A stretch of DNA of 64,000 bases. Source: a virus. Taxonomy: Duplodnaviria > Caudoviricetes. A program made the position numbers and the translations under genes. This document shows positions 9,174-19,543 of this stretch, piece by piece (positions within the stretch are counted from its first letter, which is position 1; the number at the start of each line of letters is the position of its first letter). The stretch is from positions 47,561 through 111,560 of IMG/VR virus record IMGVR_UViG_2671180612_000001; one strand, written 5' to 3'. The notes beneath the pieces are model-generated. The model worked only from the letters and a program-made list of their open reading frames with translations. It made no database searches and was not told the origin of the DNA.

Positions 9174-10811
9174 TCAGCGGTTCCACGCCGGCCGCGGGCT
9201 CGCCACCTTGCGGAAGACGAGCGGCGAGACCTTGATCTGGAACGCCTTGGACGCCTCGCGGCGCCAGGACATCGCGAGGTTGAAGAGGTCCATGTAGGAG
9301 CTCACGCCCGTCGCAGCGTCGAGACCCTCCATCTTGTGCGGCAGGGTGCGCAGCAGGAGCTTCTCACCGTTGCGGAACGGGATCGGCACGCTGTTCTCCG
9401 CGCCCCGACGGTTGACGCCGCCCGTGACCGGCATCGTCAGCCCGCCGCGGTAGCGGAGCTGCAAGGACGCGCCGACGAAAATCGTCTCCTCGGACAGAAG
9501 CTCGACCTCGCAGAGCGCTTCCATCCAGTCGCCGGCGACGATCCCGAGGGCCGAGTAGCTCGGCATGACCGGCGTGAGCGACAGCGAGTTGACGCCAGCA
9601 GCCGGAGCGGCCGGGGTGATGGTGAAGACCTGCTTCTCGGCAACGCCGGCCTCGATCACCTCCTTCGAGGCGACGATCGCTTCGGTCTGGCCGGCACCGC
9701 GGTTCACCGTGACGCTCGTTGCGACGCTGCCGGTGATCCCGCCGTTCTTGGTGCCGTTGGTGCCGAGGAACCCGCCCGTCGCGAGCAGATTGCCGGCGCG
9801 CGAACGATCCACGAAATCGCCTGCCGTCACCATGGAGCGCAGCACGTCGAGGAGCATCCCCGGTTCGGAGTTGCGGATCCAGTGACCGACCGACGTCATG
9901 TGGATGCCGTCCTCGAGGATCGGCTGGCCGGACGCGATCGCGTCCCGGATGAGCTTGCGATCATCGACGACCTTCACGCCCTCGCGAGAGCCGAGCGTCG
10001 CGCACCAGGCGCCGAAGTTTTCGAGCGTCACATGGCGCGGATCGCCGACCTTCCAGTCGGTGCGCGGGGTCGGCATGAGGACCACGGCCCAGATGCCGGC
10101 ATAGCGGAGCATGGTGAGGATGCGATCGAGCCGGAGCTTCAAGGTCTCGAGCGTGATCGGGGTCTTGCCGTCGGCCTGGCGCCGGCTGTTCACGTCGTTG
10201 GTGCCGATGTCCACGACCACGATGTCGGGCCGCATGTCGATCGTGCGCTTCAGGCGCTCGTAGCCGCCGTTGAGGTCGTCACCGCCCAGACCTGCCTGCG
10301 ATCCGGCGAAGCCCTTGGCGTCGCCCGCGCGGTTCTGCGCATAGTCCTTATCGAACCAGGAGTTGACGTTGAAGCGCCCGTCCATGGACTGAAGAAGGCC
10401 CATGTCGCCGAACGCCGCGCCGGTGTTGATGTCGATGCGGTTGTGGAGCGCCGGCGGGACCGCGTTGCCGAAAGCGTAGCCCGAGCGCGCGATGAAGCTG
10501 TGGCCGAGACCCATGACCTTGGCGCCGGTCTTCAGTGGAAGAGCGGGAAGAGTGCGCGGGGTCGCGAAAGGAGCGCTGGTCGGCAGAACCTCTGCGGTGA
10601 GAGACGCGCCGTCGGGATCGGCGGGAAGGGTAAGCTTCCAGAAGCCGAACTCGTCGGCATGAATCGTTCCGGCGAGCGAGGCGCCGGCCTTGACCGTCAC
10701 CGGCACGCCAGCACGCGCCCGGCCCGAGACGACGAACGTCTTGACGTCATAGGCGTCGATCGTGGGAACCGTATCAGCGGGGATCTTCGAGTAGGGACCG
10801 TATCCGGACAT
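9174..10811 (-). CDS. SGNH/GDSL hydrolase with Ig-like N-terminus
   Basis: GHSF, GTND and DGIH motifs. Confidence 0.75.
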   Translation of the reverse strand: MSGYGPYSKIPADTVPTIDAYDVKTFVVSGRARAGVPVTVKAGASLAGTIHADEFGFWKLTLPADPDGASLTAEVLPTSAPFATPRTLPALPLKTGAKVMGLGHSFIARSGYAFGNAVPPALHNRIDINTGAAFGDMGLLQSMDGRFNVNSWFDKDYAQNRAGDAKGFAGSQAGLGGDDLNGGYERLKRTIDMRPDIVVVDIGTNDVNSRRQADGKTPITLETLKLRLDRILTMLRYAGIWAVVLMPTPRTDWKVGDPRHVTLENFGAWCATLGSREGVKVVDDRKLIRDAIASGQPILEDGIHMTSVGHWIRNSEPGMLLDVLRSMVTAGDFVDRSRAGNLLATGGFLGTNGTKNGGITGSVATSVTVNRGAGQTEAIVASKEVIEAGVAEKQVFTITPAAPAAGVNSLSLTPVMPSYSALGIVAGDWMEALCEVELLSEETIFVGASLQLRYRGGLTMPVTGGVNRRGAENSVPIPFRNGEKLLLRTLPHKMEGLDAATGVSSYMDLFNLAMSWRREASKAFQIKVSPLVFRKVASPRPAWNR

Positions 10812-10814
10812 CGA

Positions 10815-11093
10815 TCAGCCCTTCGTCACGATTGCGGAGCCCGGCAGACGCTTGGCGCGGGCATAGACGGTCTCGGTGGTGAGAGAGCCGAACGAGAAGG
10901 AGCGATGCGCGCCGGCGCCGACCGTATGGGCCTCGTCGTTCTGCGGATCGGGAAGCTCGCTATCGAGGCGAACGAGGATGTCGGTGCCCTCGCTCTCGAC
11001 CAGGAGCTCCGAGACGCCAGAGGCAATCTCGGTCCACTCGTCGCGGGTGAGGTTGAAACGCTTGGTCGGCTGGAAAGCCATGATGAACTCCAT
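10815..11093 (-). CDS. small beta-rich hypothetical protein (start may be 11081)
   Basis: First gene of the reverse operon, downstream of the box at 11119. Confidence 0.6.
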   Translation of the reverse strand: MEFIMAFQPTKRFNLTRDEWTEIASGVSELLVESEGTDILVRLDSELPDPQNDEAHTVGAGAHRSFSFGSLTTETVYARAKRLPGSAIVTKG

Positions 11094-11118
11094 TGGGAAC
11101 AGGAGCCACCATCATAGC

Positions 11119-11134
11119 AAGTAAGCGCTTACTT
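11119..11134. promoter_or_regulatory. perfect palindromic copy AAGTAAGCGCTTACTT of the window-wide operator-like box
   Basis: One of 21 intergenic copies of AGTAA-N4-TTACT; lies between divergent genes. Confidence 0.8.
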
Positions 11135-11204
11135 AACCAAGGGGAACCATATGGAAAGAGGGAAGAAGGCAGGCTGCGCGGGCACCAGAATCAGGAGAGA
11201 CCCG

Positions 11205-11402
11205 GTGAGCAAAGACCTGGACGAGTTCGATCGCCTTCTCGCGGCCTACACGGAAGCGGCCTACAAATACGGAGCTGCCGAGGAGAGCAAGAAGATCAAG
11301 CGCCTGGCGGACGCATCACAGGACAGGGGCCTGACACACAACGAGCTCCGGACATTCGTCGCCGATCGCCTCAAGAGGCTCGAGGAAGCAGAGCGCTACT
11401 AG
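11205..11402 (+). CDS. hypothetical protein
   Basis: AGGAGAG RBS, GTG start. Confidence 0.55.
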   Translation: MSKDLDEFDRLLAAYTEAAYKYGAAEESKKIKRLADASQDRGLTHNELRTFVADRLKRLEEAERY

Positions 11403-12320
11403 CGCTTCGATTAAGGGCGATGGACCTTTACACAGAGGTCCAGTCCGACCCAGGCCAGGCTGACAAGCGTAAACCAGGCGGTTGACGCAAACCCTTGTGA
11501 GACTGGAAACGACCTTTACGCGAGCTTTACGCCCGGAGAACCTGAAACCTCGATTTCGGGAAAGACGTAAACGTCGACCCGATCGCGCGCACAGACCAAG
11601 AGAACAGACCAGCGCAGCGCAAAGAGCACCAGAAACGCACAGAGCAGCTCACCAGCGCGATCCAAGCGTCTGACGCGCACAGAGAGAGCGAAACACTCGG
11701 GAAGCTATTCAGCGACGAACCCTGACGATTTCGAGAAAACAGACCAAACGCATACCCCGCAGCATCGAAAACATATCCGAGATCATCACCCATAGAGAGC
11801 GACAGAGCACGCAGACCCATAAGAGACGCATGAGCACCGGAAAGCAGCACAGCACCCATAGAGAGGGACAAGCGCACGCTTCCGGCATGTGAGAGCAGAG
11901 AGCACGCATAGAGGGGCATAGGGGGAGATAGTGAGCTGGTCTGGTGGGGTTGGCGCCTCGCCACAAACAGCCTCGAACTTCCAGACCGACCACCTCAACC
12001 CGAACGCACGCGCCGTAAGCATCCGCTTTCAATCCACACGCGCTCATGAGACAAACGATCAACGACGCTTGCAGAGCTGGGCGAGCGTTCGTGTGTTGCT
12101 GACGGCAACGTCGAGGTCCACCAGCTACCAGCCGGTCTCCGGCTACCTGATCCGACAACGCCACAATTTCAGGGCTCGCTTGATCCTACGGGGTCGGCGA
12201 GCCTCTTTTTTGGCTGACGGAAAAATTAGGAACGGAGGCACTCCCCTGTAGGAGCATAGCCGTCACGGGGAACCCATGCCCCGCGTCCTTGGAACGCCGA
12301 TCCCCACACGAGCCGGAGAT

Positions 12321-12366
12321 CCATGGGTTTCCACGGCGCCCCGTGGTTTTCCGAGGAGGCCCGCGG
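12321..12366. repeat. 10-bp-phased CCNNGG array (5 units)
   Basis: CCATGG 12321, CCACGG 12331, CCGTGG 12341, CCGAGG 12351, CCGCGG 12361. Confidence 0.8.
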
Positions 12367-12393
12367 GGTTTCCCGTGCCGGAGACGTCCGCCC

Positions 12394-12470
12394 CTAATCG
12401 CCTCTCGTCTACATTAGAAACCTGTCTAGTAGATAACTTACCTTTGTAGGTGAGTGGCATTTAGCTCCGG
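12394..12470. repeat. AT-cored inverted-repeat element, copy 1 (degenerate)
   Basis: TCTACATTAGAA...TGTAGGTGAGTGGCATTTAGCTCCGG, similar to 26741-26833. Confidence 0.7.
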
Positions 12471-12680
12471 CGCGATCCTTTGCACGGAAACGCGCTCACG
12501 CACGACGGCTCCCGGCCCGCTCCTAAGTAATTCCTTCCGTATATCCGCCCGAAACGCGCCGACAAGACCCCGCGACTACACGCTTCAAGCCCATATCGTG
12601 ATGCTTCATATTCACAATGCAAGCAACGAAGAAAACAAGAGCTTGCAAGCGATAGCAACGCACACACAAGGGTTTATCAA

Positions 12681-13550
12681 ATGTCGAAGCGCACCGCGAA
12701 GAACACCGCCGCCCAGATCGAGAACGTCGTCCTCGAGGGCGAGATCATCGCTCCGGTCGTCGAGCAGATCACCGAGACCAACGAGCCCACGGAAGCCGAG
12801 CTCGACGCCATCGAGACCGCCGAGGTCCAGTCCGAAGCCTACCAGGCCCAGGCGTCCGAGATCGACGAGGTCAACCCGGACCAGGCACCGGCAGGCGACG
12901 AGCCCGAGCTCCTCACCGACGAGCCGGAGCAGAAGACGCTCGCCCAGATGATCGAGGGCATCGAGCGCGACCACGCCGTCGCCATGCAGCACCACATCGC
13001 CGCGGAGATCGACGACCGCATGGACTACGAGAGCGACAAGGGGAACGAGACGATCCAGCGCTCCTTGAAGAGCTCCCGCGCGAAGATGACCACCGACCTC
13101 CTCGCCGCCTACGCCTTTGCCGCGACGAGCGTCGACCCGTCGGTCTTCAACGTCGGACGCGCCTCGACGAACCGCTACAACGTCTACGCCATCGACAAGG
13201 TCGCGGACCTGGCGCGCTCGCTCGCCTCGGGGCACTTCATGAAGAACGCCATCAACCGCGCTGTGTGCCGCTCGCTCTTCACGTTCCGCCACTCCGGCGA
13301 GCGCTTCACGATGGAGATCGCCAAGGCAGCGTGCTCCGACAAGATCCGCGTGTCGCCGGCGATCTCGCGCCATCTGATCCGTCACACGGTCTCGGCGTCG
13401 ACCGCGCCCACCCAGGCGTCGTCCACCATGCAGGCCCTCGAGACGCTCGGCATCGTCAAGAACGTCGGCACCGCCCGCGGCGCCGTCTACGAGCTGACCG
13501 ACACGGCGCAGGCGCGCGCCCTCGAGGAGCTCTGCACGAAGGCAGCGTAA
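12681..13550 (+). CDS. hypothetical protein with acidic N-terminus; C-terminal domain paralogous to 15536-16132
   Basis: Long ORF with its own upstream AT-rich region and terminator; manual alignment. Confidence 0.8.
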   Translation: MSKRTAKNTAAQIENVVLEGEIIAPVVEQITETNEPTEAELDAIETAEVQSEAYQAQASEIDEVNPDQAPAGDEPELLTDEPEQKTLAQMIEGIERDHAVAMQHHIAAEIDDRMDYESDKGNETIQRSLKSSRAKMTTDLLAAYAFAATSVDPSVFNVGRASTNRYNVYAIDKVADLARSLASGHFMKNAINRAVCRSLFTFRHSGERFTMEIAKAACSDKIRVSPAISRHLIRHTVSASTAPTQASSTMQALETLGIVKNVGTARGAVYELTDTAQARALEELCTKAA

Positions 13551-13561
13551 GGGAGAGGAGG

Positions 13562-13588
13562 GAAAGGTGCTTCGGCGCCTTTTCTTTG
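13562..13588 (+). terminator. intrinsic terminator
   Basis: AAAGGTGC-TTCG-GCGCCTTTTTCTTT. Confidence 0.7.
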
Positions 13589-13762
13589 CGCCTGGCTCGC
13601 GGGGCGGTTTGGTATGGCTGGGACTAAATGGGAGCCGCCCTGTGTCGCGGGGTTTTTAGGAACGGGGCGCTCCCCTGTGTAGGCGAGGACACCGTCGGGC
13701 CGGCGCGGTAGACAGAGGAAAGCCGTGGGTGCCCACGGGAGCCGCCGAGCCGGAGGAATGCC

Positions 13763-13981
13763 ATGGAACTGATCCTCGACATGCAGGCAGAGGAAGGGGA
13801 ATCGCAGCAGGAGTTGGACGCTCTCATCACCCTGGCCTTCATTTACAAGCTGAAGGTCAAGACGGAAGGAGGCGGGAAAGCAGAGCGCCCCTTCGCACGG
13901 GTTCATGGGGTAATCGACCCTGCCGTCTTGCATCGGATCCTGTCGGAGATGCAGCCGGACCCGAAGCCTGAAAGCCCCTGA
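13763..13981 (+). CDS. hypothetical protein
   Basis: GGAGG RBS. Confidence 0.4.
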   Translation: MELILDMQAEEGESQQELDALITLAFIYKLKVKTEGGGKAERPFARVHGVIDPAVLHRILSEMQPDPKPESP

Positions 13982-14053
13982 ACAAGCGTCTGTGACCCCA
14001 TAGCGAGCAATGCGACTCTCATCGTGTCAGCAACACGAGAGCGAGACATCGCC

Positions 14054-14302
14054 ATGCAGATCGCACAAGCTCCCCAGACGCCCGCCGAGATCGCTGCCCT
14101 CCGGATCTCCCTCGACTTCCTGTCGTTCCAGCAGGGCCACTTCGAGCCCTACAACCCCAAGCGCGTCGCGCGCACCATCGGCGAGATCCGGCGCCGGCGC
14201 GCCCTCGAGCTCCAGACCCAGCGTGCCGCGCACCTCATCAAGCGAATGTGCATGGGACTGGTCCTAGTCCTGGCAGGCGCAGGCGTGGTCTCTCTCCTCT
14301 AG
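14054..14302 (+). CDS. hypothetical protein with C-terminal TM helix
   Basis: TGTCAGCAACACGA leader; hydrophobic C-terminus. Confidence 0.6.
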   Translation: MQIAQAPQTPAEIAALRISLDFLSFQQGHFEPYNPKRVARTIGEIRRRRALELQTQRAAHLIKRMCMGLVLVLAGAGVVSLL

Positions 14303-14584
14303 GCGCCTGTCACAACCTGCAGGCGCTCAACGCGGGCCAGGCGAGTCACCCAACAGCTCGACCTGGTCCGCACCCGTCCAGGCCCGTCCAGGTCCAGTAA
14401 GGCCAGGCACGGGTCTTTTCGCGTCAGGCTGCGCCCCGCGGGCCTCCTCGGCGGCTCCCGGCCGAGCTCTTCCCCACCAGACACCTCTCGACCGCGCTCA
14501 ACGTGCCGTCGCTGCACGCTTATAGCCCGTAAGTCGCTGATTTATATTCATAATTGTCAGCAACACGAAACGAGAGAGTTTCAC

Positions 14585-14923
14585 ATGACCCGCACTGCTT
14601 CGCTCAACGCTTCCGCCTCGATCGTCGCTCGCTTCGCCGATGCCATCGAGCTTGCCGATGCGTTCAAGGTCGATCATGTGCCCGCCAACATCGACGCCGA
14701 CCTGTTCAAGCGCTCGTCCGAGGGAACGCTGCGCTCCGCTGGCGACCGCTTCCGGCTCGCGATCCAGCATTCCGGACTGTCGCCCGACGACATGCCTGCT
14801 ATTCGTGACCAGGGGATGCAGCTCGTCGAGGAGCGCAAGCGCATTCGCCGGGAAGAAGCCGCTCACCGTGCCGCCAAGCGTGAAGCCGCGCTCGCGAGCC
14901 GGGAAGAGCGCGAATACGCTTAG
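14585..14923 (+). CDS. hypothetical protein
   Basis: Same TGTCAGCAACACGA leader, GAGAGAG RBS. Confidence 0.7.
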   Translation: MTRTASLNASASIVARFADAIELADAFKVDHVPANIDADLFKRSSEGTLRSAGDRFRLAIQHSGLSPDDMPAIRDQGMQLVEERKRIRREEAAHRAAKREAALASREEREYA

Positions 14924-15535
14924 ATCCAGCCTAGCGGAGAGCGTCGCGTCACAGCGGCGCTTTCTTGTGGGCTGGGCGAGCGGGACGGGTCGGGGCGGAG
15001 ACGGATCAAGGGGGCGGGGAGGGGACGCGCCTGCCTCGAGGAATTTTGGAACGGCTGGGCTAAATGGGACTCGGGGAAACGACTGCGGGGCGTCGTTTCC
15101 CCTTGTTGCCGCCGGCCCACCTCCGACTGCCCCGTGGGTGCCCGCGGCGAATACCGTGCCAACGGAAATTAGGAACGGGGAGGAAAGGACGTGGGCGCCC
15201 AAGATCCGGACGGGGATGGGCCTATGCGGCGCCCCGAGGGCGCCCGCGGGGCGGGGGCGCGCGTAGGACGCCCCGCGACGGGGAGCAAATCACAAAACCG
15301 GGGCAACGCGTAGCTGACTACGGGTCAGTCGGGGCGCGCGACTAGGACGACGCGCGTCGGGGAGCAAGTCACGAAAGCGGGGCTCACAGGGGCGTGACGC
15401 AATTCATTTTCGTTCGTCGCGACTCATTCCTTTTCGTTTTTGCGTAAGTAAGCGCTTGCTTATTCATGTGCGTCGTATAAATTCATTTGTGTCGCACACA
15501 GACGACATCAGCAACACACAAAGAAAGACACTCAC

Positions 15536-16132
15536 ATGACGCAGATCGCTTCTAACGACTTCGCTGCTAAGCTCGCTGCATACGCTGACGCTGCTAAGCT
15601 CAACATCGTGACGCGCAAAGACAAAGTGTCTGACGCGAACGCTAAGCACTTCGATCGCTCGATCGCGATGCTTGCGAATGAGACGATCGCACAAGCTCTT
15701 ATCGCTGCTGACGTCGATGCGTCGCGCTACACGTCGCAAGTCTATGCGTTCAAGAAAGAGAACGCTATTCTTGACTATCTCTTCAATAATAAGACGATGC
15801 AGAACTATATCGCAGAGATTTTTGTCAGCGCGTTTCGTAAGCATCACGTCAAGAACGCAGCGTTGACGAAGAGCGAAGCGAAGCTTGCGCTTAACAAGTC
15901 TGCGAAGCTTAGCGAAAGCGAAGCAACGTATATCGTGCAACAGTCGAAAATCATCGATGAAAGCACTGTGAACGCGCAGCATAAGACGACGCTAGACGCT
16001 TTCGTCAATCTGCGTATGTTCTCGCAAGTCTCGACGTTCGAAACGCGCGACGCTTACGCAATCAATCTCGAAAGCGACATGACGCAGCGCATGATTGCGC
16101 GTCTTAACATCGCTGATATGTTCGCTGCGTAA
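15536..16132 (+). CDS. hypothetical protein encoded without any GG/CC dinucleotide (no Gly, Pro, Trp); paralog of 12681-13550
   Basis: 198-aa ORF with upstream box, leader motif and downstream hairpin. Confidence 0.85.
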   Translation: MTQIASNDFAAKLAAYADAAKLNIVTRKDKVSDANAKHFDRSIAMLANETIAQALIAADVDASRYTSQVYAFKKENAILDYLFNNKTMQNYIAEIFVSAFRKHHVKNAALTKSEAKLALNKSAKLSESEATYIVQQSKIIDESTVNAQHKTTLDAFVNLRMFSQVSTFETRDAYAINLESDMTQRMIARLNIADMFAA

Positions 16133-16148
16133 ATCGACACAGACGCTC

Positions 16149-16175
16149 GCTGACGCGCTTCGATAGCGCGTCAGC
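16149..16175 (+). terminator. GG/CC-free hairpin after the 15536 gene
   Basis: GCTGACGCGCT-TCGAT-AGCGCGTCAGC, 11-bp perfect stem; no clear U-tract. Confidence 0.55.
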
Positions 16176-16489
16176 TACTCGCGAAGCTCTCACGCTCAAA
16201 CGCTCGCTCTTGAGCTTCTATGACGATCCCAGAGCGTGAGACACCCCAGCCACAGCGCGCGACACTCGCCCAATCCCTCCTCGCGCATCGCGTGACATCG
16301 GGGACACAGCCCCAGGGGACGACGTGTGCTGGGTGGACACACTCTGTTGCACGGGGACCATGTGGCGGGAAGGACACGAGGTCCTAGAAGCCCCGCCACA
16401 GGTCGAAGGGGATGCCTTTTGAGGGCGAGACACTCCCCGGCCTGGACCCTTAATCCTACATCGACTTAGAGTAGATCGGAGGGGCTGCG

Positions 16490-17131
16490 ATGGATGGTTT
16501 GGCATCGCTGTTTAACACGCTGAAGACGCCGTCGTTTGCGGCTGGCTTGGTCTTCCTCATCGGAGGCATATTGGTTCGGTTCGGGATCTACCTCGGCGAG
16601 ATCCAAGAGTCGGCATTCGATGGAAGCATCCGCACCTACGCCGGCATATCGATAGCCCTCGGAGCGACGATCTTCGCCGTTGCGCTCCTGCTCCGAGCCG
16701 CTCACTGGTTGCGAAAAGTGCCCGCGATCAGGGCAGCACGAGCGAAGAACATACGGGAGCGTGAGATCGTCCTGGAGGCCTCGCGCGCACTCAGCATGGA
16801 CGCCACGACGATCCTCTACGGATTGCTGCGAAACGACAGTAGGACATCGCGCGGCTTCAGCGCGCCGGCGATGAACGAGCTTCAGCAGCTCGACATCATT
16901 CGCCCTGCCGGGGACTACAAATACAAGATTAACGAGTCCGTCATGATCGAGATCACCCCTCAAGTCTGGGATCAACGGGATCGGATCAAGCTGGAGCTCG
17001 TAGAAGCGCTCAAGGATTATACGGGTAATCCGCTCTTCGATGACGAGGCATACGAGATCCTCGTCGCTCAGCAGATCGCTGCCAGAGATCGGCAAGGCAG
17101 AGGTCGTCAGCATGACTGGATGGGGTTCTGA
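16490..17131 (+). CDS. SieB-like superinfection exclusion membrane protein
   Basis: Two N-terminal TM helices then a soluble domain (LS..A..IL...L..L.II...ITP.VW); lower GC. Confidence 0.5.
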   Translation: MDGLASLFNTLKTPSFAAGLVFLIGGILVRFGIYLGEIQESAFDGSIRTYAGISIALGATIFAVALLLRAAHWLRKVPAIRAARAKNIREREIVLEASRALSMDATTILYGLLRNDSRTSRGFSAPAMNELQQLDIIRPAGDYKYKINESVMIEITPQVWDQRDRIKLELVEALKDYTGNPLFDDEAYEILVAQQIAARDRQGRGRQHDWMGF

Positions 17132-17232
17132 TTGCGCTGGGAACGACGCTCTGGGGTAGGCGCCCCGATGCCCCGTGGATCTGACCCTTAATCCGCCGCT
17201 GCCGCGCGCCTGCGGCGCACGGAGCTCGAGGG

Positions 17233-17631
17233 CTACTGCGACAAGGGCATGTCACCGAGGAGCTGGTCGACCTTCTGGCGCGTCTCCATCCGCTTGGCGA
17301 TGTCCTTTGCCACCTCGGCACAGTAGGCGTCCCTGATGCCGACGTCCTTGCCGAACTCGCCCTCGACGTATCGACGCGCGAAATCCCAGTGCTTCTTGAG
17401 ATTGGGCTTGGTCAATGAAGCCGCAACGCGCTTGAAGGTGGTCTCCTTCTCAAACGTCATCATGGCGTCAGTGACGGACAGACCCTGCGAGTTACAGATC
17501 TGGCGCTGCTGGTAGAGGATGAGCTCCCTACCTTGCCATGAAGCTGGCATCTCCTGCGCGAGAACCGTCTCTGCAAGGAATGCGAGCACCAAGAGCGCCG
17601 CGATGGCGCCCAGCACGATCCGTTTGATCAT
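17233..17631 (-). CDS. secreted/periplasmic hypothetical protein
   Basis: Signal peptide, two Cys; paralog of the neighbour. Confidence 0.7.
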   Translation of the reverse strand: MIKRIVLGAIAALLVLAFLAETVLAQEMPASWQGRELILYQQRQICNSQGLSVTDAMMTFEKETTFKRVAASLTKPNLKKHWDFARRYVEGEFGKDVGIRDAYCAEVAKDIAKRMETRQKVDQLLGDMPLSQ

Positions 17632-18008
17632 TGCGGAAGCTCCCCGATTGCGGCCGGGAGTTCTTCCGACACCAGCCTCCTATCGATGAGCGATTGGGCG
17701 AACTCGGCGCAGCGCTCCTTCGGAGACTTCTCCTTGGCGTATTCGGTCTGGCTCGTCCTTGCGGTTTCGGCCCAAATTTTCTGTCGCTGCTCCTGCGAGA
17801 AGTTTGCGAAGAGCCGCTGCTGTGCATCGACGACCTTTCGACGCGACTCCTCGACCATTCCATCGGTGATCGAGAACTTGTCCGCGTTGCAGAGCCTCAT
17901 CACCTGATAGGGCAGGAAGAGCTGACGCAGCATTTCATCGGAGAGCTCTTCGGCGAGCGCCGGGACAGTTCCGGCTAGAATCGCCAGCGCAGCGCCGGCG
18001 ACCCTCAT
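17628..18008 (-). CDS. secreted/periplasmic hypothetical protein
   Basis: Signal peptide ending ALA, two Cys. Confidence 0.7.
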   Translation of the reverse strand: MRVAGAALAILAGTVPALAEELSDEMLRQLFLPYQVMRLCNADKFSITDGMVEESRRKVVDAQQRLFANFSQEQRQKIWAETARTSQTEYAKEKSPKERCAEFAQSLIDRRLVSEELPAAIGELPQ

Positions 18009-18241
18009 TTCATGTGCTCCTTCGCCCAAAGCTCGAGGCTCTGCTCGAGGATGTCCACCATGGGCACGCCCGTCGAGGCCGAGATCATCTTGTAGCGCTT
18101 GTGGAGCTCGGGCGTGACGCGGAACCCGAACGAGATCTTCGCCTCGGACGGACGGGTCATGTTGTCGGCGGGCGCCTGCGGGATCGACAGGTTCGCTATC
18201 GAGCCAGCGCGGGCCTTGGACGGGGGCTTGGGAATGCTCAT
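18005..18241 (-). CDS. ParG-like ribbon-helix-helix centromere-binding protein
   Basis: Small gene coupled to parA; flexible N-tail plus ISFGFRVTPELHKRYK strand-helix pattern. Confidence 0.7.
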   Translation of the reverse strand: MSIPKPPSKARAGSIANLSIPQAPADNMTRPSEAKISFGFRVTPELHKRYKMISASTGVPMVDILEQSLELWAKEHMK

Positions 18242-18894
18242 GCTTGGTCGAGCTCCGGCATCAGGGAGGTGAGCTTCTTGGCGATCTCGTTGGCGACTTC
18301 GGTGGCCCGCTCGTTCAGCGTGCCGAACGTCGTCTCGGCTGCGGACCTGCCCTGGTTCTGGGCGAGCTGGTAGCCGGTCTTGGACGTCAGGTCCGTCTTC
18401 GCCACCTCGTAGCCGCCGCTCTCGAGGAAGGCGCGTGCTTCCTCCGTCGCCGACGTGCCAGGGGCGGTCTTGTTGATCACGAAGAGGATCTTGCGCTTAT
18501 CGATGCCCTTGGCGACGAGCTCGTTGGCGAACATCACCTGGGGCTTGAGATCGTCGAAGGTGGTTCCGGTCGGGACCACGACGAGCCGGGATGCCTTCGC
18601 CAGCTCCAGCGAGGTCTGGTCAGAGTCCGGCCGGCCGTCCGCGACGATGAGGTCGTGCTTCTCGCGAGCCAGCGCGCGCACCGTCGAGAAGGCTTCCGCC
18701 TCGATCTCGGGCTCGATGCCGGCGGCTTTGCGGGACGCGGCCCAATCCACGGCCGTCAACTGCCGCACGTTGAAGTCGGCGATCTTCACGCTCCAGCCGC
18801 CCGCCGAGAACGTCTGGGCGATGAGGCGCGCGAAGGTGGACTTGCCGACCCCTCCCTTCTGGGAGAGGCAGGAGATCATGAGCTGGTCAGCCAT
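18238..18894 (-). CDS. parA: ParA partition ATPase (short, type Ib-like)
   Basis: SQKGGVGKST deviant Walker A; no N-terminal HTH. Confidence 0.9.
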   Translation of the reverse strand: MADQLMISCLSQKGGVGKSTFARLIAQTFSAGGWSVKIADFNVRQLTAVDWAASRKAAGIEPEIEAEAFSTVRALAREKHDLIVADGRPDSDQTSLELAKASRLVVVPTGTTFDDLKPQVMFANELVAKGIDKRKILFVINKTAPGTSATEEARAFLESGGYEVAKTDLTSKTGYQLAQNQGRSAAETTFGTLNERATEVANEIAKKLTSLMPELDQA

Positions 18895-18897
18895 CTA

Positions 18898-18937
18898 GAT
18901 TTCCAGATTTCCAGGTTCCGCGATTTCGAGAAACCTA
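18898..18937. repeat. 8-bp tandem array, candidate centromere/operator
   Basis: GATTTCCA GATTTCCA GGTTCCGC GATTTCGA GAAACCTA directly upstream of parA. Confidence 0.65.
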
Positions 18938-18979
18938 GACGGCAGGGCGGTTAATTTCCAGTGAACGGAAACGGAACGG

Positions 18980-19543
18980 TCATGCCTCCTGTATGCGATC
19001 TGCATGAGCCCGCTCGATTTTGGCGTTCCAGGTATCAGCCAGATCGTCCAAGAGGGCGTTCTCGTTTGGAGTGAGTTCTTCTCGGGCTTGGGCACGCAAA
19101 TGGTCGGCCATCAAATGCGGACGCTCCCGAACAAGGATTGCGGCCTGCGCTCTGAACTGCTCGACCGTCAAAACATTCGTGCCAGTCAGCAGAGCAACGG
19201 CGACCATCCAGCCTACGCCCTTCATACTAAGCTCCGGCGGCATCTGTAGTGTTGCTATACAAATAGCCAAAAACAGAGTGCTGGTGGCGATCAATACGTA
19301 GACCATCGCGCCAACGTTCGCGAGAAGAAGCCGTGTGGGATTTCGATCGACCAACTCGAGCTGGATGCGAAGCGCAACGAGAAGCTTCTTCCTGTATCGC
19401 CTGTAGGGTGTGCCCTTGATCCTGCGGAATAGCTTAGGCGTGGCTGCGAACGCGAGACCTACCAAGACTCCCGCGAAGAGTGGCAGTCCTGTGAGGGACC
19501 GCTCTGCGGCAAGATAGCAGGAAACGATGCTGTCGCAGTTCAT
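18980..19543 (-). CDS. hypothetical membrane protein (lower-GC accessory gene)
   Basis: Three hydrophobic segments. Confidence 0.55.
   Translation of the reverse strand: MNCDSIVSCYLAAERSLTGLPLFAGVLVGLAFAATPKLFRRIKGTPYRRYRKKLLVALRIQLELVDRNPTRLLLANVGAMVYVLIATSTLFLAICIATLQMPPELSMKGVGWMVAVALLTGTNVLTVEQFRAQAAILVRERPHLMADHLRAQAREELTPNENALLDDLADTWNAKIERAHADRIQEA

Follow-up and report, generated by a model that had tools for sequence, protein, structure and literature searches.

Several known regulators share a DNA-binding domain with a companion protein. Examples are the phage Mu repressor and MuA transposase, which have a common N-domain, the Tn5 transposase and its N-terminally shorter inhibitor, and the papillomavirus E2 activator and short E2 repressors. 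To our knowledge, none of these systems has a dinucleotide-free gene. Here, we analyze a gene pair found in 64,000 bp of DNA (the window), which form the 3' 64 kb of the 111,560-bp IMG/VR virus record IMGVR_UViG_2671180612_000001 (genome G000, rated 95 % complete). The upstream gene encodes a long protein, P0001, and the downstream gene encodes a short protein, P0002, inside an island that contains neither GG nor CC. The pair resembles the Mu, Tn5, and E2 systems in combining a full-length protein that carries an effector extension with a shorter version that keeps the binding domain. Unlike in those systems, the two proteins are not products of one gene: they are encoded by separate genes located ~2 kb apart and are ~20 % identical, and competition between them is hypothetical.

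The second comparison concerns motif avoidance. Animal viruses are depleted of CpG, which is read by the protein ZAP. In phages, restriction-site avoidance and genome-wide depletion of protospacer adjacent motifs (PAMs) are described in the accessible parts of two papers (PMC4246573; PMC12174588). The island is similar to these cases in that a short word was removed from both strands by selection, and the same lineage also avoids GTAC (0 vs. 167 expected). As far as the accessible text goes, known avoidance is either a genome-wide statistical depletion or concerns sites of 4-8 bp, whereas here a dinucleotide is wholly absent from one transcription unit. Furthermore, three amino acids are lost here while the remaining genome uses GG/CC freely. 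The literature on dinucleotide and PAM avoidance in phages, within its accessible parts, contained genome-wide depletion studies only and described no dinucleotide-free gene.

The Long and Short Paralogs

The pair and its island comprise the following features of the window:

12681..13550, + strand: long paralog P0001, 289 aa, high-GC ordinary coding, GC content at third codon positions (GC3) 0.96
12681..12947, + strand: residues 1-89 of P0001, an acidic N-terminal extension with a net charge of -18
12939..13547, + strand: P0001 residues 87-289, a conserved basic domain common to P0002, in which a helical part precedes the C-terminal winged helix
15536..16132, + strand: short paralog P0002, 198 aa, the conserved domain without the extension
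15429..16228, no strand assigned: GG/CC-free island, 799 bp, from 107 nt before the P0002 start codon to 96 nt past its stop codon

Both genes are located on the + strand, with 1,986 bp between the P0001 stop codon and P0002. P0001 contains 10 Gly and 9 Pro, and its gene has 129 GG/CC and a GC content of 67.5 %. In P0002, Gly, Pro, and Trp are all absent; the gene has 0 GG/CC and a GC content of 50.3 %. The block means of the predicted local distance difference test (pLDDT) are 43-62 for P0001 residues 1-80 in the AlphaFold model, and this part is thus predicted to be disordered. The family profile covers P0001 residues 94-288. Among the long copies, the shared domain has an isoelectric point (pI) of 8.0-9.8 and the extension a net charge of -1 to -30, while P0002 has a pI of 8.7 and a net charge of +2.

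DNA searches led to Hyphomicrobiales phage-plasmids of ~117-122 kb, namely Rhizobium phage B1VFA, Sinorhizobium pLM21S1, and plasmids from Methylobacterium, Shinella, and Rhizobium. Another 19 loci came from a profile search of IMG/VR. Each of the 22 related loci contains one homolog of either type, long and short, at a distance of 587-2,746 bp; the long copy of locus L022 is cut off by the contig end. The two copies share a strand in 6 of the 22 relatives and in the window. A word-index homolog search found a single relative of P0002, and a locus search with one protein found none. In total, 569 family members were found at E ≤0.001 by a HMMER scan of 1.84 billion representatives, most of them carrying a variable N-terminal part ahead of the domain. 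Proteins free of Gly, Pro, and Trp accounted for 13 of 152 sequences (the best matches listed, together with P0002 and P0003). The announcement of B1VFA and V1VFA-S says nothing of the gene pair or the island (PMC12509600), and both go unmentioned in the accessible part of the LM21 paper (PMC5537653).

P0001 and P0002 are true paralogs, one family in two versions. Their direct comparison by BLASTP was not significant (E 0.089, 22 % over 104 aa), and P0002 was absent from the matches of a hidden Markov model (HMM) made from 4 long homologs (E limit 10). The relationship emerges from the comparison of profiles. Thus, hhalign of 4 long and 4 GG/CC-free short homologs gave a probability of 61.5 % (E 7.8e-5), which rose to 97.9 % (E 3.8e-13) when one normally coded short homolog was added and to 99.5 % (E 3e-22, 177 columns) when 18 long and 20 short homologs were compared. 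The family alignments (A4-A6) were made without L001-L003. HMM searches covered 2,385 six-frame open reading frames (ORFs) of the related loci. A long-only HMM (4 proteins) matched 10 short homologs with E from 3.7e-29 to 1.2e-7, including Gly/Pro/Trp-free ones such as those of L010 and L007. An HMM of 5 short proteins matched every long one (~1e-8 to 1e-19; P0001 at 5.2e-15), and an HMM of only the 4 GG/CC-free short proteins reached a single long protein (L011, 3.9e-10). In the Methylobacterium oryzae plasmid, where both genes are ordinarily coded, the long and short proteins match each other by BLASTP (E 4e-21, 30 % over 169 aa). A chain of pairwise matches leads from P0002 through B1VFA_061, the short copy of B1VFA, and the short copy of the M. 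oryzae plasmid to P0001. Finally, the AlphaFold models of P0001 and P0002 have an identical order of helices and strands, with a pLDDT of 91.6 for P0002 and mostly >90 for P0001 residues 87-289.

The original prediction, based on a hand alignment, had called the two genes distant paralogs ~2 kb apart and one family in two versions. Profile comparison, the match within one plasmid, the HMM matches, the order of secondary structure in the models, and the tree described below all agree with it. The blocks of the hand alignment were recovered by hhalign as well (SVDPS/DVDAS, NVYAIDK/QVYAFKK, TMEIAKAA/TKSEAKLA, and STAPTQASSTMQALETL/STVNAQHKTTLDAFVNL). The about 100 acidic residues ascribed to the upstream copy correspond to the 89-residue extension, and this copy does keep its Gly and Pro.

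In a maximum-likelihood tree of 44 rows (long copies trimmed to the shared domain; L019 omitted as a near-copy of L018), the long and short copies are split by a single branch with support of 100/100. As read from the sequences, both genes come from one ancient duplication, older than the spread of this phage-plasmid lineage. Two normally coded short copies, L003 (71 GG/CC) and L015 (66), are nested among relatives with 0-6 GG/CC, and L020 (30 GG/CC), which is partly relaxed, has relatives with 0 around it in the tree. Because of this nesting, the purge of GG/CC is taken to be old and its loss derived; the tree places the purge as ancestral to the short clade and as secondarily relaxed in a few lineages. 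Several short-copy branches are long, so details within the short clade are unsure.

The GG/CC-Free Island

Apart from the island, GG/CC-free stretches reach at most 79 bp in the window and 82 bp genome-wide. The short coding sequence (CDS) has 0 GG/CC in 12 of the 22 relatives and in the window; 19 of the 22 relatives have ≤10 GG/CC, and 20 have a short CDS without Gly. For L002, the short CDS was read from the ATG at 9406, which places it wholly inside the island; an upstream GTG would add 6 GG/CC.

The avoidance of GG/CC acts at the nucleotide level while the protein stays selected. When the synonymous codons of P0002 were shuffled with the protein and codon set kept, a mean of 20.3 junction GG/CC was obtained, and none of 20,000 shuffles reached zero. 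Recoding by genome codon usage gave a mean of 59.8 GG/CC and a minimum of 43 (5,000 trials). The shuffle outcome was alike in every depleted relative. The non-coding flanks of P0002 are likewise GG/CC-free. An amino-acid- or tRNA-level cause of the avoidance was rejected, since codon junctions and flanks are affected too. Thus, the short gene is indeed free of GG/CC, as had been claimed, and the proposed GG/CC constraint is one on nucleotides and not on amino-acid choice alone. The short gene is under purifying selection, with ratios of non-synonymous to synonymous substitution rates (dN/dS) of 0.03-0.34 in 10 pairs. In each of the 10 pairs, the short copy showed more synonymous divergence than the long copy, which may only reflect a relaxed GC3 bias.

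The avoidance is strand-symmetric, GG and CC both being zero, and the word depletion on both strands exceeds the expectation from composition and coding. Among the dinucleotides of the islands, CG (1.75) and GC (1.86) are over-represented and TA is low (0.56). In the window, B1VFA, pLM21S1, and pAMS5a, the island begins ~100 nt ahead of the start codon (loci with this start include L001, L002, and L014). At its other end, it extends beyond a hairpin downstream of the stop codon in the window and relatives. Longer islands in relatives, up to 1,531 bp, hold 1-2 extra small ORFs. Such ORFs were found in L002 (8425-8730, -), L014 (9547-9738 and 9799-10179, +), L007 (8316-8507, -), and L010 (10189-10446, -). 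The extra ORFs contain no Gly or Pro and matched no Pfam family. The island of the window also contains an antisense ORF of 172 aa (15464-15982, - strand), of a kind that is expected in DNA with few stop-prone words; profile conservation, the confident fold, and dN/dS speak for the + frame.

Fold and Neighborhood of the Pair

In the models, a helical domain is followed by a C-terminal winged helix, which accords with the winged-helix-like C-terminus of the original prediction. The three-helix core and the subsequent β-hairpin wing assign this part to the winged helix-turn-helix (wHTH) domains. The nearest folds are the winged-helix domains of MarR, ArsR/SmtB, Fur N-domains, the linker-histone globular domain, MukE, and ORC. 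No family was found for P0001 or P0002 in searches of Pfam, PHROGs, PADLOC, and PDB sequences. Foldseek found nothing in PDB at E ≤0.001, and the ESM Atlas yielded clusters of hypothetical proteins only. No Pfam match to MarR or ArsR/SmtB at threshold was found in P0001, P0002, or the 38 members scanned; the best PDB sequence match was NmtR (E 0.2). In BFVD, the P0002 model had full-length matches to the phage proteins A0A7S5RLS2 and A0A6J7WLV9 (template-modelling scores 0.71-0.78, E 4.5e-8 and 1.2e-5). These two proteins are structurally alike to P0002 and have no annotated function, so they add members to the family and no mechanism.

Known functional types were also considered. Neither protein matched a profile of the replication initiators (RepA/Rep_3, RepC); in two relatives, pAMS5a and the M. 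oryzae plasmid, the annotated repC gene lies elsewhere, and the repeated words near the pair do not form a regular iteron array. An acidic DNA mimic of the Ocr/ArdA type was rejected, given the pI and net charge of P0002 and its lack of a Pfam or PADLOC match.

The DNA around the pair contains several further elements:

15446..15461, no strand assigned: copy of the genome-wide palindrome AAGTAAGCGCTTACTT (1 mismatch), within the island and 75-90 nt ahead of the start codon
15508..15535, + strand: T-poor leader TCAGCAACAC...AAAGAAAGACACTCAC, in which a GG-containing Shine-Dalgarno is absent
16149..16175, + strand: 10-bp inverted repeat GCTGACGCGC / GCGCGTCAGC, just past the stop codon and in the island, without a T-run, read from the sequence
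15253..15383, + strand: two G-rich direct repeats of 52 nt, 83 % alike, directly upstream of the island
12226..12235, + strand: TTAGGAACGG word, with other copies at 12517(-), 13656, 15045, and 15169

The palindrome AAGTAAGCGCTTACTT (arms TAAGTAA / TTACTTA, variable center) has 19 copies in the window, where 0.05 are expected, and ~43 genome-wide; sites include 740, 11119, 15446, 20218, 22363, 28850, 42026, and 56664. Most copies are intergenic, and a + strand start codon follows 23-40 nt after them. The first 50 kb of B1VFA contain 17 such palindromes, and the Methylobacterium elements have the variant AAGTCAG-NN-CTGACTT, with a matched change in both arms. The palindrome is a candidate genome-wide promoter, operator, or RNA element. 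Its copy at 15446 overlaps a possible -35 hexamer, TTGCTT; no sigma-70 consensus was found by a promoter scan of 11000-17000.

The word TCAGCAACAC has 4 exact copies, all in this region (12093(-), 14027, 14557, and 15508), and 3 of them lie 25-30 nt before + strand ORF starts, that of P0002 included. The shuffle control for this word is weak, as 10 of 100 shuffles reach 5 matches at ≤1 mismatch. Leaders similar to TCAGCAACAC...AAAGAAAGACACTCAC precede the short paralogs in other loci. The inverted repeat past the stop codon is a possible transcript end; it was not listed by the terminator scan. The word TTAGGAACGG (≤1 mismatch) has 5 copies against 1.4 expected, a number reached in none of 100 shuffles. 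These copies are restricted to the intergenic DNA around the two paralogs (12226-15178), and words of this type are located ~400 bp before the long gene in L001, L012, L014, L018, and L019. The word is a candidate operator, iteron, or part of a transcript element.

Positions 11500-11930 are non-coding, T-poor, rich in A, C, and G, and full of CACAGAGA-like words, with an AT skew of 0.40 for 11001-12000. This stretch lies within a ~1.2 kb gene-free gap before P0001, and the long gene is preceded by a comparable gap in B1VFA and pLM21S1. Genes for a ribbon-helix-helix (RHH) protein and ParA are located at 18005-18894. The product of the gene after the island (16490-17131, +) is a 213-aa protein whose match to SieB (superinfection exclusion) stays below threshold (E 7.8e-4; 19.5 bits, cut-off 26). 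An Rfam scan of 10800-19000 found nothing.

Function of the Pair and Possible Readers of GG/CC

Judging from sequences and models, both proteins are predicted to bind DNA and probably share targets. DNA binding is made plausible by the winged-helix fold, the basic domain of the long copies, and the conserved helix 142-158, which holds 4 of the 9 columns that are invariant or near-invariant in both (T144, Q148, A155, and L156). Shared targets are suggested by this putative recognition helix, as no other piece is conserved so well between the paralogs. The TTAGGAAC words, the genome-wide palindrome, and the G-rich repeats that precede the island are candidate target sites. The acidic extension would allow the long form either to recruit a partner or to inhibit itself, and the short form would be an extension-less competitor or a stand-in at the same sites. 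The pair would work within a lysogeny/maintenance region, next to ParA, its RHH partner, and the weakly SieB-like membrane protein. The two-stage switch suggested in the original prediction is a hypothetical role of the pair, and the GG/CC-directed constraint was put forward there with no agent named.

The totality of the GG/CC purge points to a factor that reads this dinucleotide. The purge would then reflect selection at the nucleic-acid level against a reader of strand-symmetric GG/CC, and its effect would be that this single gene escapes targeting. On duplex DNA, the reader could be PAM-like or of a nuclease type; alternatively, it could read both transcripts. A duplex-DNA reader is favored because the avoidance is strand-symmetric, while reading at the RNA level stays alive because the island fits a transcription unit with a GG-free leader. 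An old duplication, a DNA-binding pair with shared targets, and a nucleotide-level purge against a GG/CC reader are combined in the reading that we put forward tentatively, giving it somewhat less than an even chance.

A number of observations weigh against this combined reading. MukE forms the top structural rows for the fold, and winged helices also mediate protein contacts. In the long copies, Ser, Thr, and Gln are frequent in the putative recognition helix, and Lys and Arg are few. In the B1VFA clade, a C-terminal acidic tail makes the whole short protein acidic (pI 4.8-6.5), and at ~20 % identity of the window pair, shared targets are not assured. A PAM-type reader leaves unexplained why ~0.8-1.5 kb of a 110-120 kb element should be protected. 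The island of B1VFA lies ~42 kb from the start of the GenBank record. If the purge is taken as generic anti-restriction, the 243 GCGC and 202 CGCG within 12.8 kb of islands also count against it, as does GGCC, which is undepleted genome-wide (970 vs. 978 expected).

A specific GG/CC reader fits better than generic restriction avoidance because the islands are not generally site-free. Thus, a generic restriction-proof segment was rejected: palindromes in the islands are mildly depleted only (4-mers, 1,122 vs. 1,238±27 expected; 6-mers, 278 vs. 381±19), and GCGC and CGCG are abundant. Protection of the first-injected DNA was rejected as well, as it does not fit the island position in B1VFA, the terminal repeats of which were determined by the authors (PMC12509600). 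A target of an AT-rich silencer was discarded, TA being under-represented at 0.56 and the zero count being too absolute.

As a separate observation, restriction-site avoidance is extreme in these elements. GTAC is absent from G000, pAMS5a, and M. oryzae unnamed2, against 167-184 expected. In G000, CAGCTG, CCCGGG, GCATGC, GGGCCC, and GTGCAC all have a count of 0, and CTCAG/CTGAG occurs 8 times against 111; in pAMS5a, CTCGAG is found 0 times against 145 expected. In the accessible part of the LM21 paper, the authors could identify no DNA methyltransferase gene in pLM21S1 (PMC5537653).

Gene-content comparison provided a lead on the reader, from the following gene:

G000:C1:28280-32457 (outside the window; locus L032): GHKL-type ATPase, 805 aa, HATPase_c_3 (E 8.7e-6), adjoining a 587-aa protein of no family

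This gene is present in 7 of 7 complete elements that have a depleted short gene (G000, pAMS5a, and 5 others) and absent from the M. oryzae plasmid, the sole complete element with normal coding; being a single contrast, this is a lead only. Two generic S-adenosylmethionine (SAM) methyltransferases were confined to the M. oryzae plasmid in the same kind of single contrast. As a cause of relaxation they were rejected, as they are absent from the partly relaxed L020 genome and have generic SAM methyltransferase folds.

The likeliest alternative to the combined reading, which we consider possible and on balance unlikely, is that the two paralogs have come to do unrelated work. Lytic replication or transcription would be the task of the long copy, and the short copy would be an early anti-defense or establishment protein that has ceased to share targets with it. 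The island would mark an early or anti-defense operon and not a switch. Such a division would suit the low identity of the window pair, the much faster evolution and long branches of the short copies, and the varying relative orientation of the genes. It would also suit the extra small ORFs without family match in longer islands, as often seen in anti-defense loci. However, the pair is kept adjacent in all 22 loci, the motif of helix 142-158 is conserved in both copies, and P0002 is unlike a DNA mimic and has no PADLOC match.

The other alternatives concern the purge itself. The first, which appears improbable, places the constraint on RNA: by lacking GG (and CC), the mRNA and perhaps also an antisense transcript would escape an endoribonuclease or an RNA-binding repressor. 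The RegB nuclease of phage T4, for example, cuts GGAG in early mRNAs. In agreement with this, the island matches a transcription unit, from ~100 nt before the start codon to after the hairpin, and in many loci a GG-free purine run replaces a GGAG-type Shine-Dalgarno in the leader. However, a single-stranded reader would constrain only one of GG and CC, unless both strands are transcribed and matter, and both are zero. Additionally, such a nuclease was not identified in the element, and the presumed promoter, upstream of any transcript, also lies inside the island.

We regard mutation-proofing as very unlikely. Here, motif-specific DNA damage or editing would hit GG/CC, and the gene would have evolved to lack targets; candidate agents are a CC-specific cytosine deaminase acting on either strand and oxidative damage, which is concentrated at GG doublets. 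The strand symmetry of the avoidance, the flanks very rich in G runs, and the higher synonymous divergence of the short copy (with the reservation on GC3 bias made above) are compatible with this idea. However, no deaminase was found among the annotations of the relatives read, GG/CC abounds elsewhere in the genome, which is nevertheless maintained, and nothing explains a need for protection in this gene only. Chance or composition, such as low-complexity helical proteins aligning or a low-GC patch, has a negligible probability: the direct match of the pair is marginal, but the profile-profile comparison and the match within one plasmid are highly significant, no codon shuffle was free of GG/CC, and the feature recurs in most of the 22 relatives at identities down to ~20-25 %.

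A more specific version of the combined reading, which we offer as doubtful, is that the island is a reader-proof cassette. An undescribed GG/CC-acting system of the Hyphomicrobiales host or the element would be unable to touch this stripped-down paralog of an essential regulator. If so, the short copy could still be expressed even if the remaining genome were bound, cut, or silenced. This would be a bacterial counterpart of the CpG/ZAP dinucleotide sensing in animal cells and the first known case of a gene that sacrifices three amino acids to hide.

A conserved gene under selection that lacks one dinucleotide altogether bears an unusually sharp signature, which is kept down to ~20 % identity at the cost of Gly, Pro, and Trp. 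This naturally recoded paralog provides a direct assay for finding the GG/CC discriminator, and the controls are built in: the normally coded long copy and the lineages in which the purge has lapsed (the M. oryzae plasmid, L015, and partly L020). The pair also defines a new winged-helix protein family, located at the maintenance/lysogeny region of a poorly known group of phage-plasmids (B1VFA/pLM21S1-type) whose hosts are soil bacteria.

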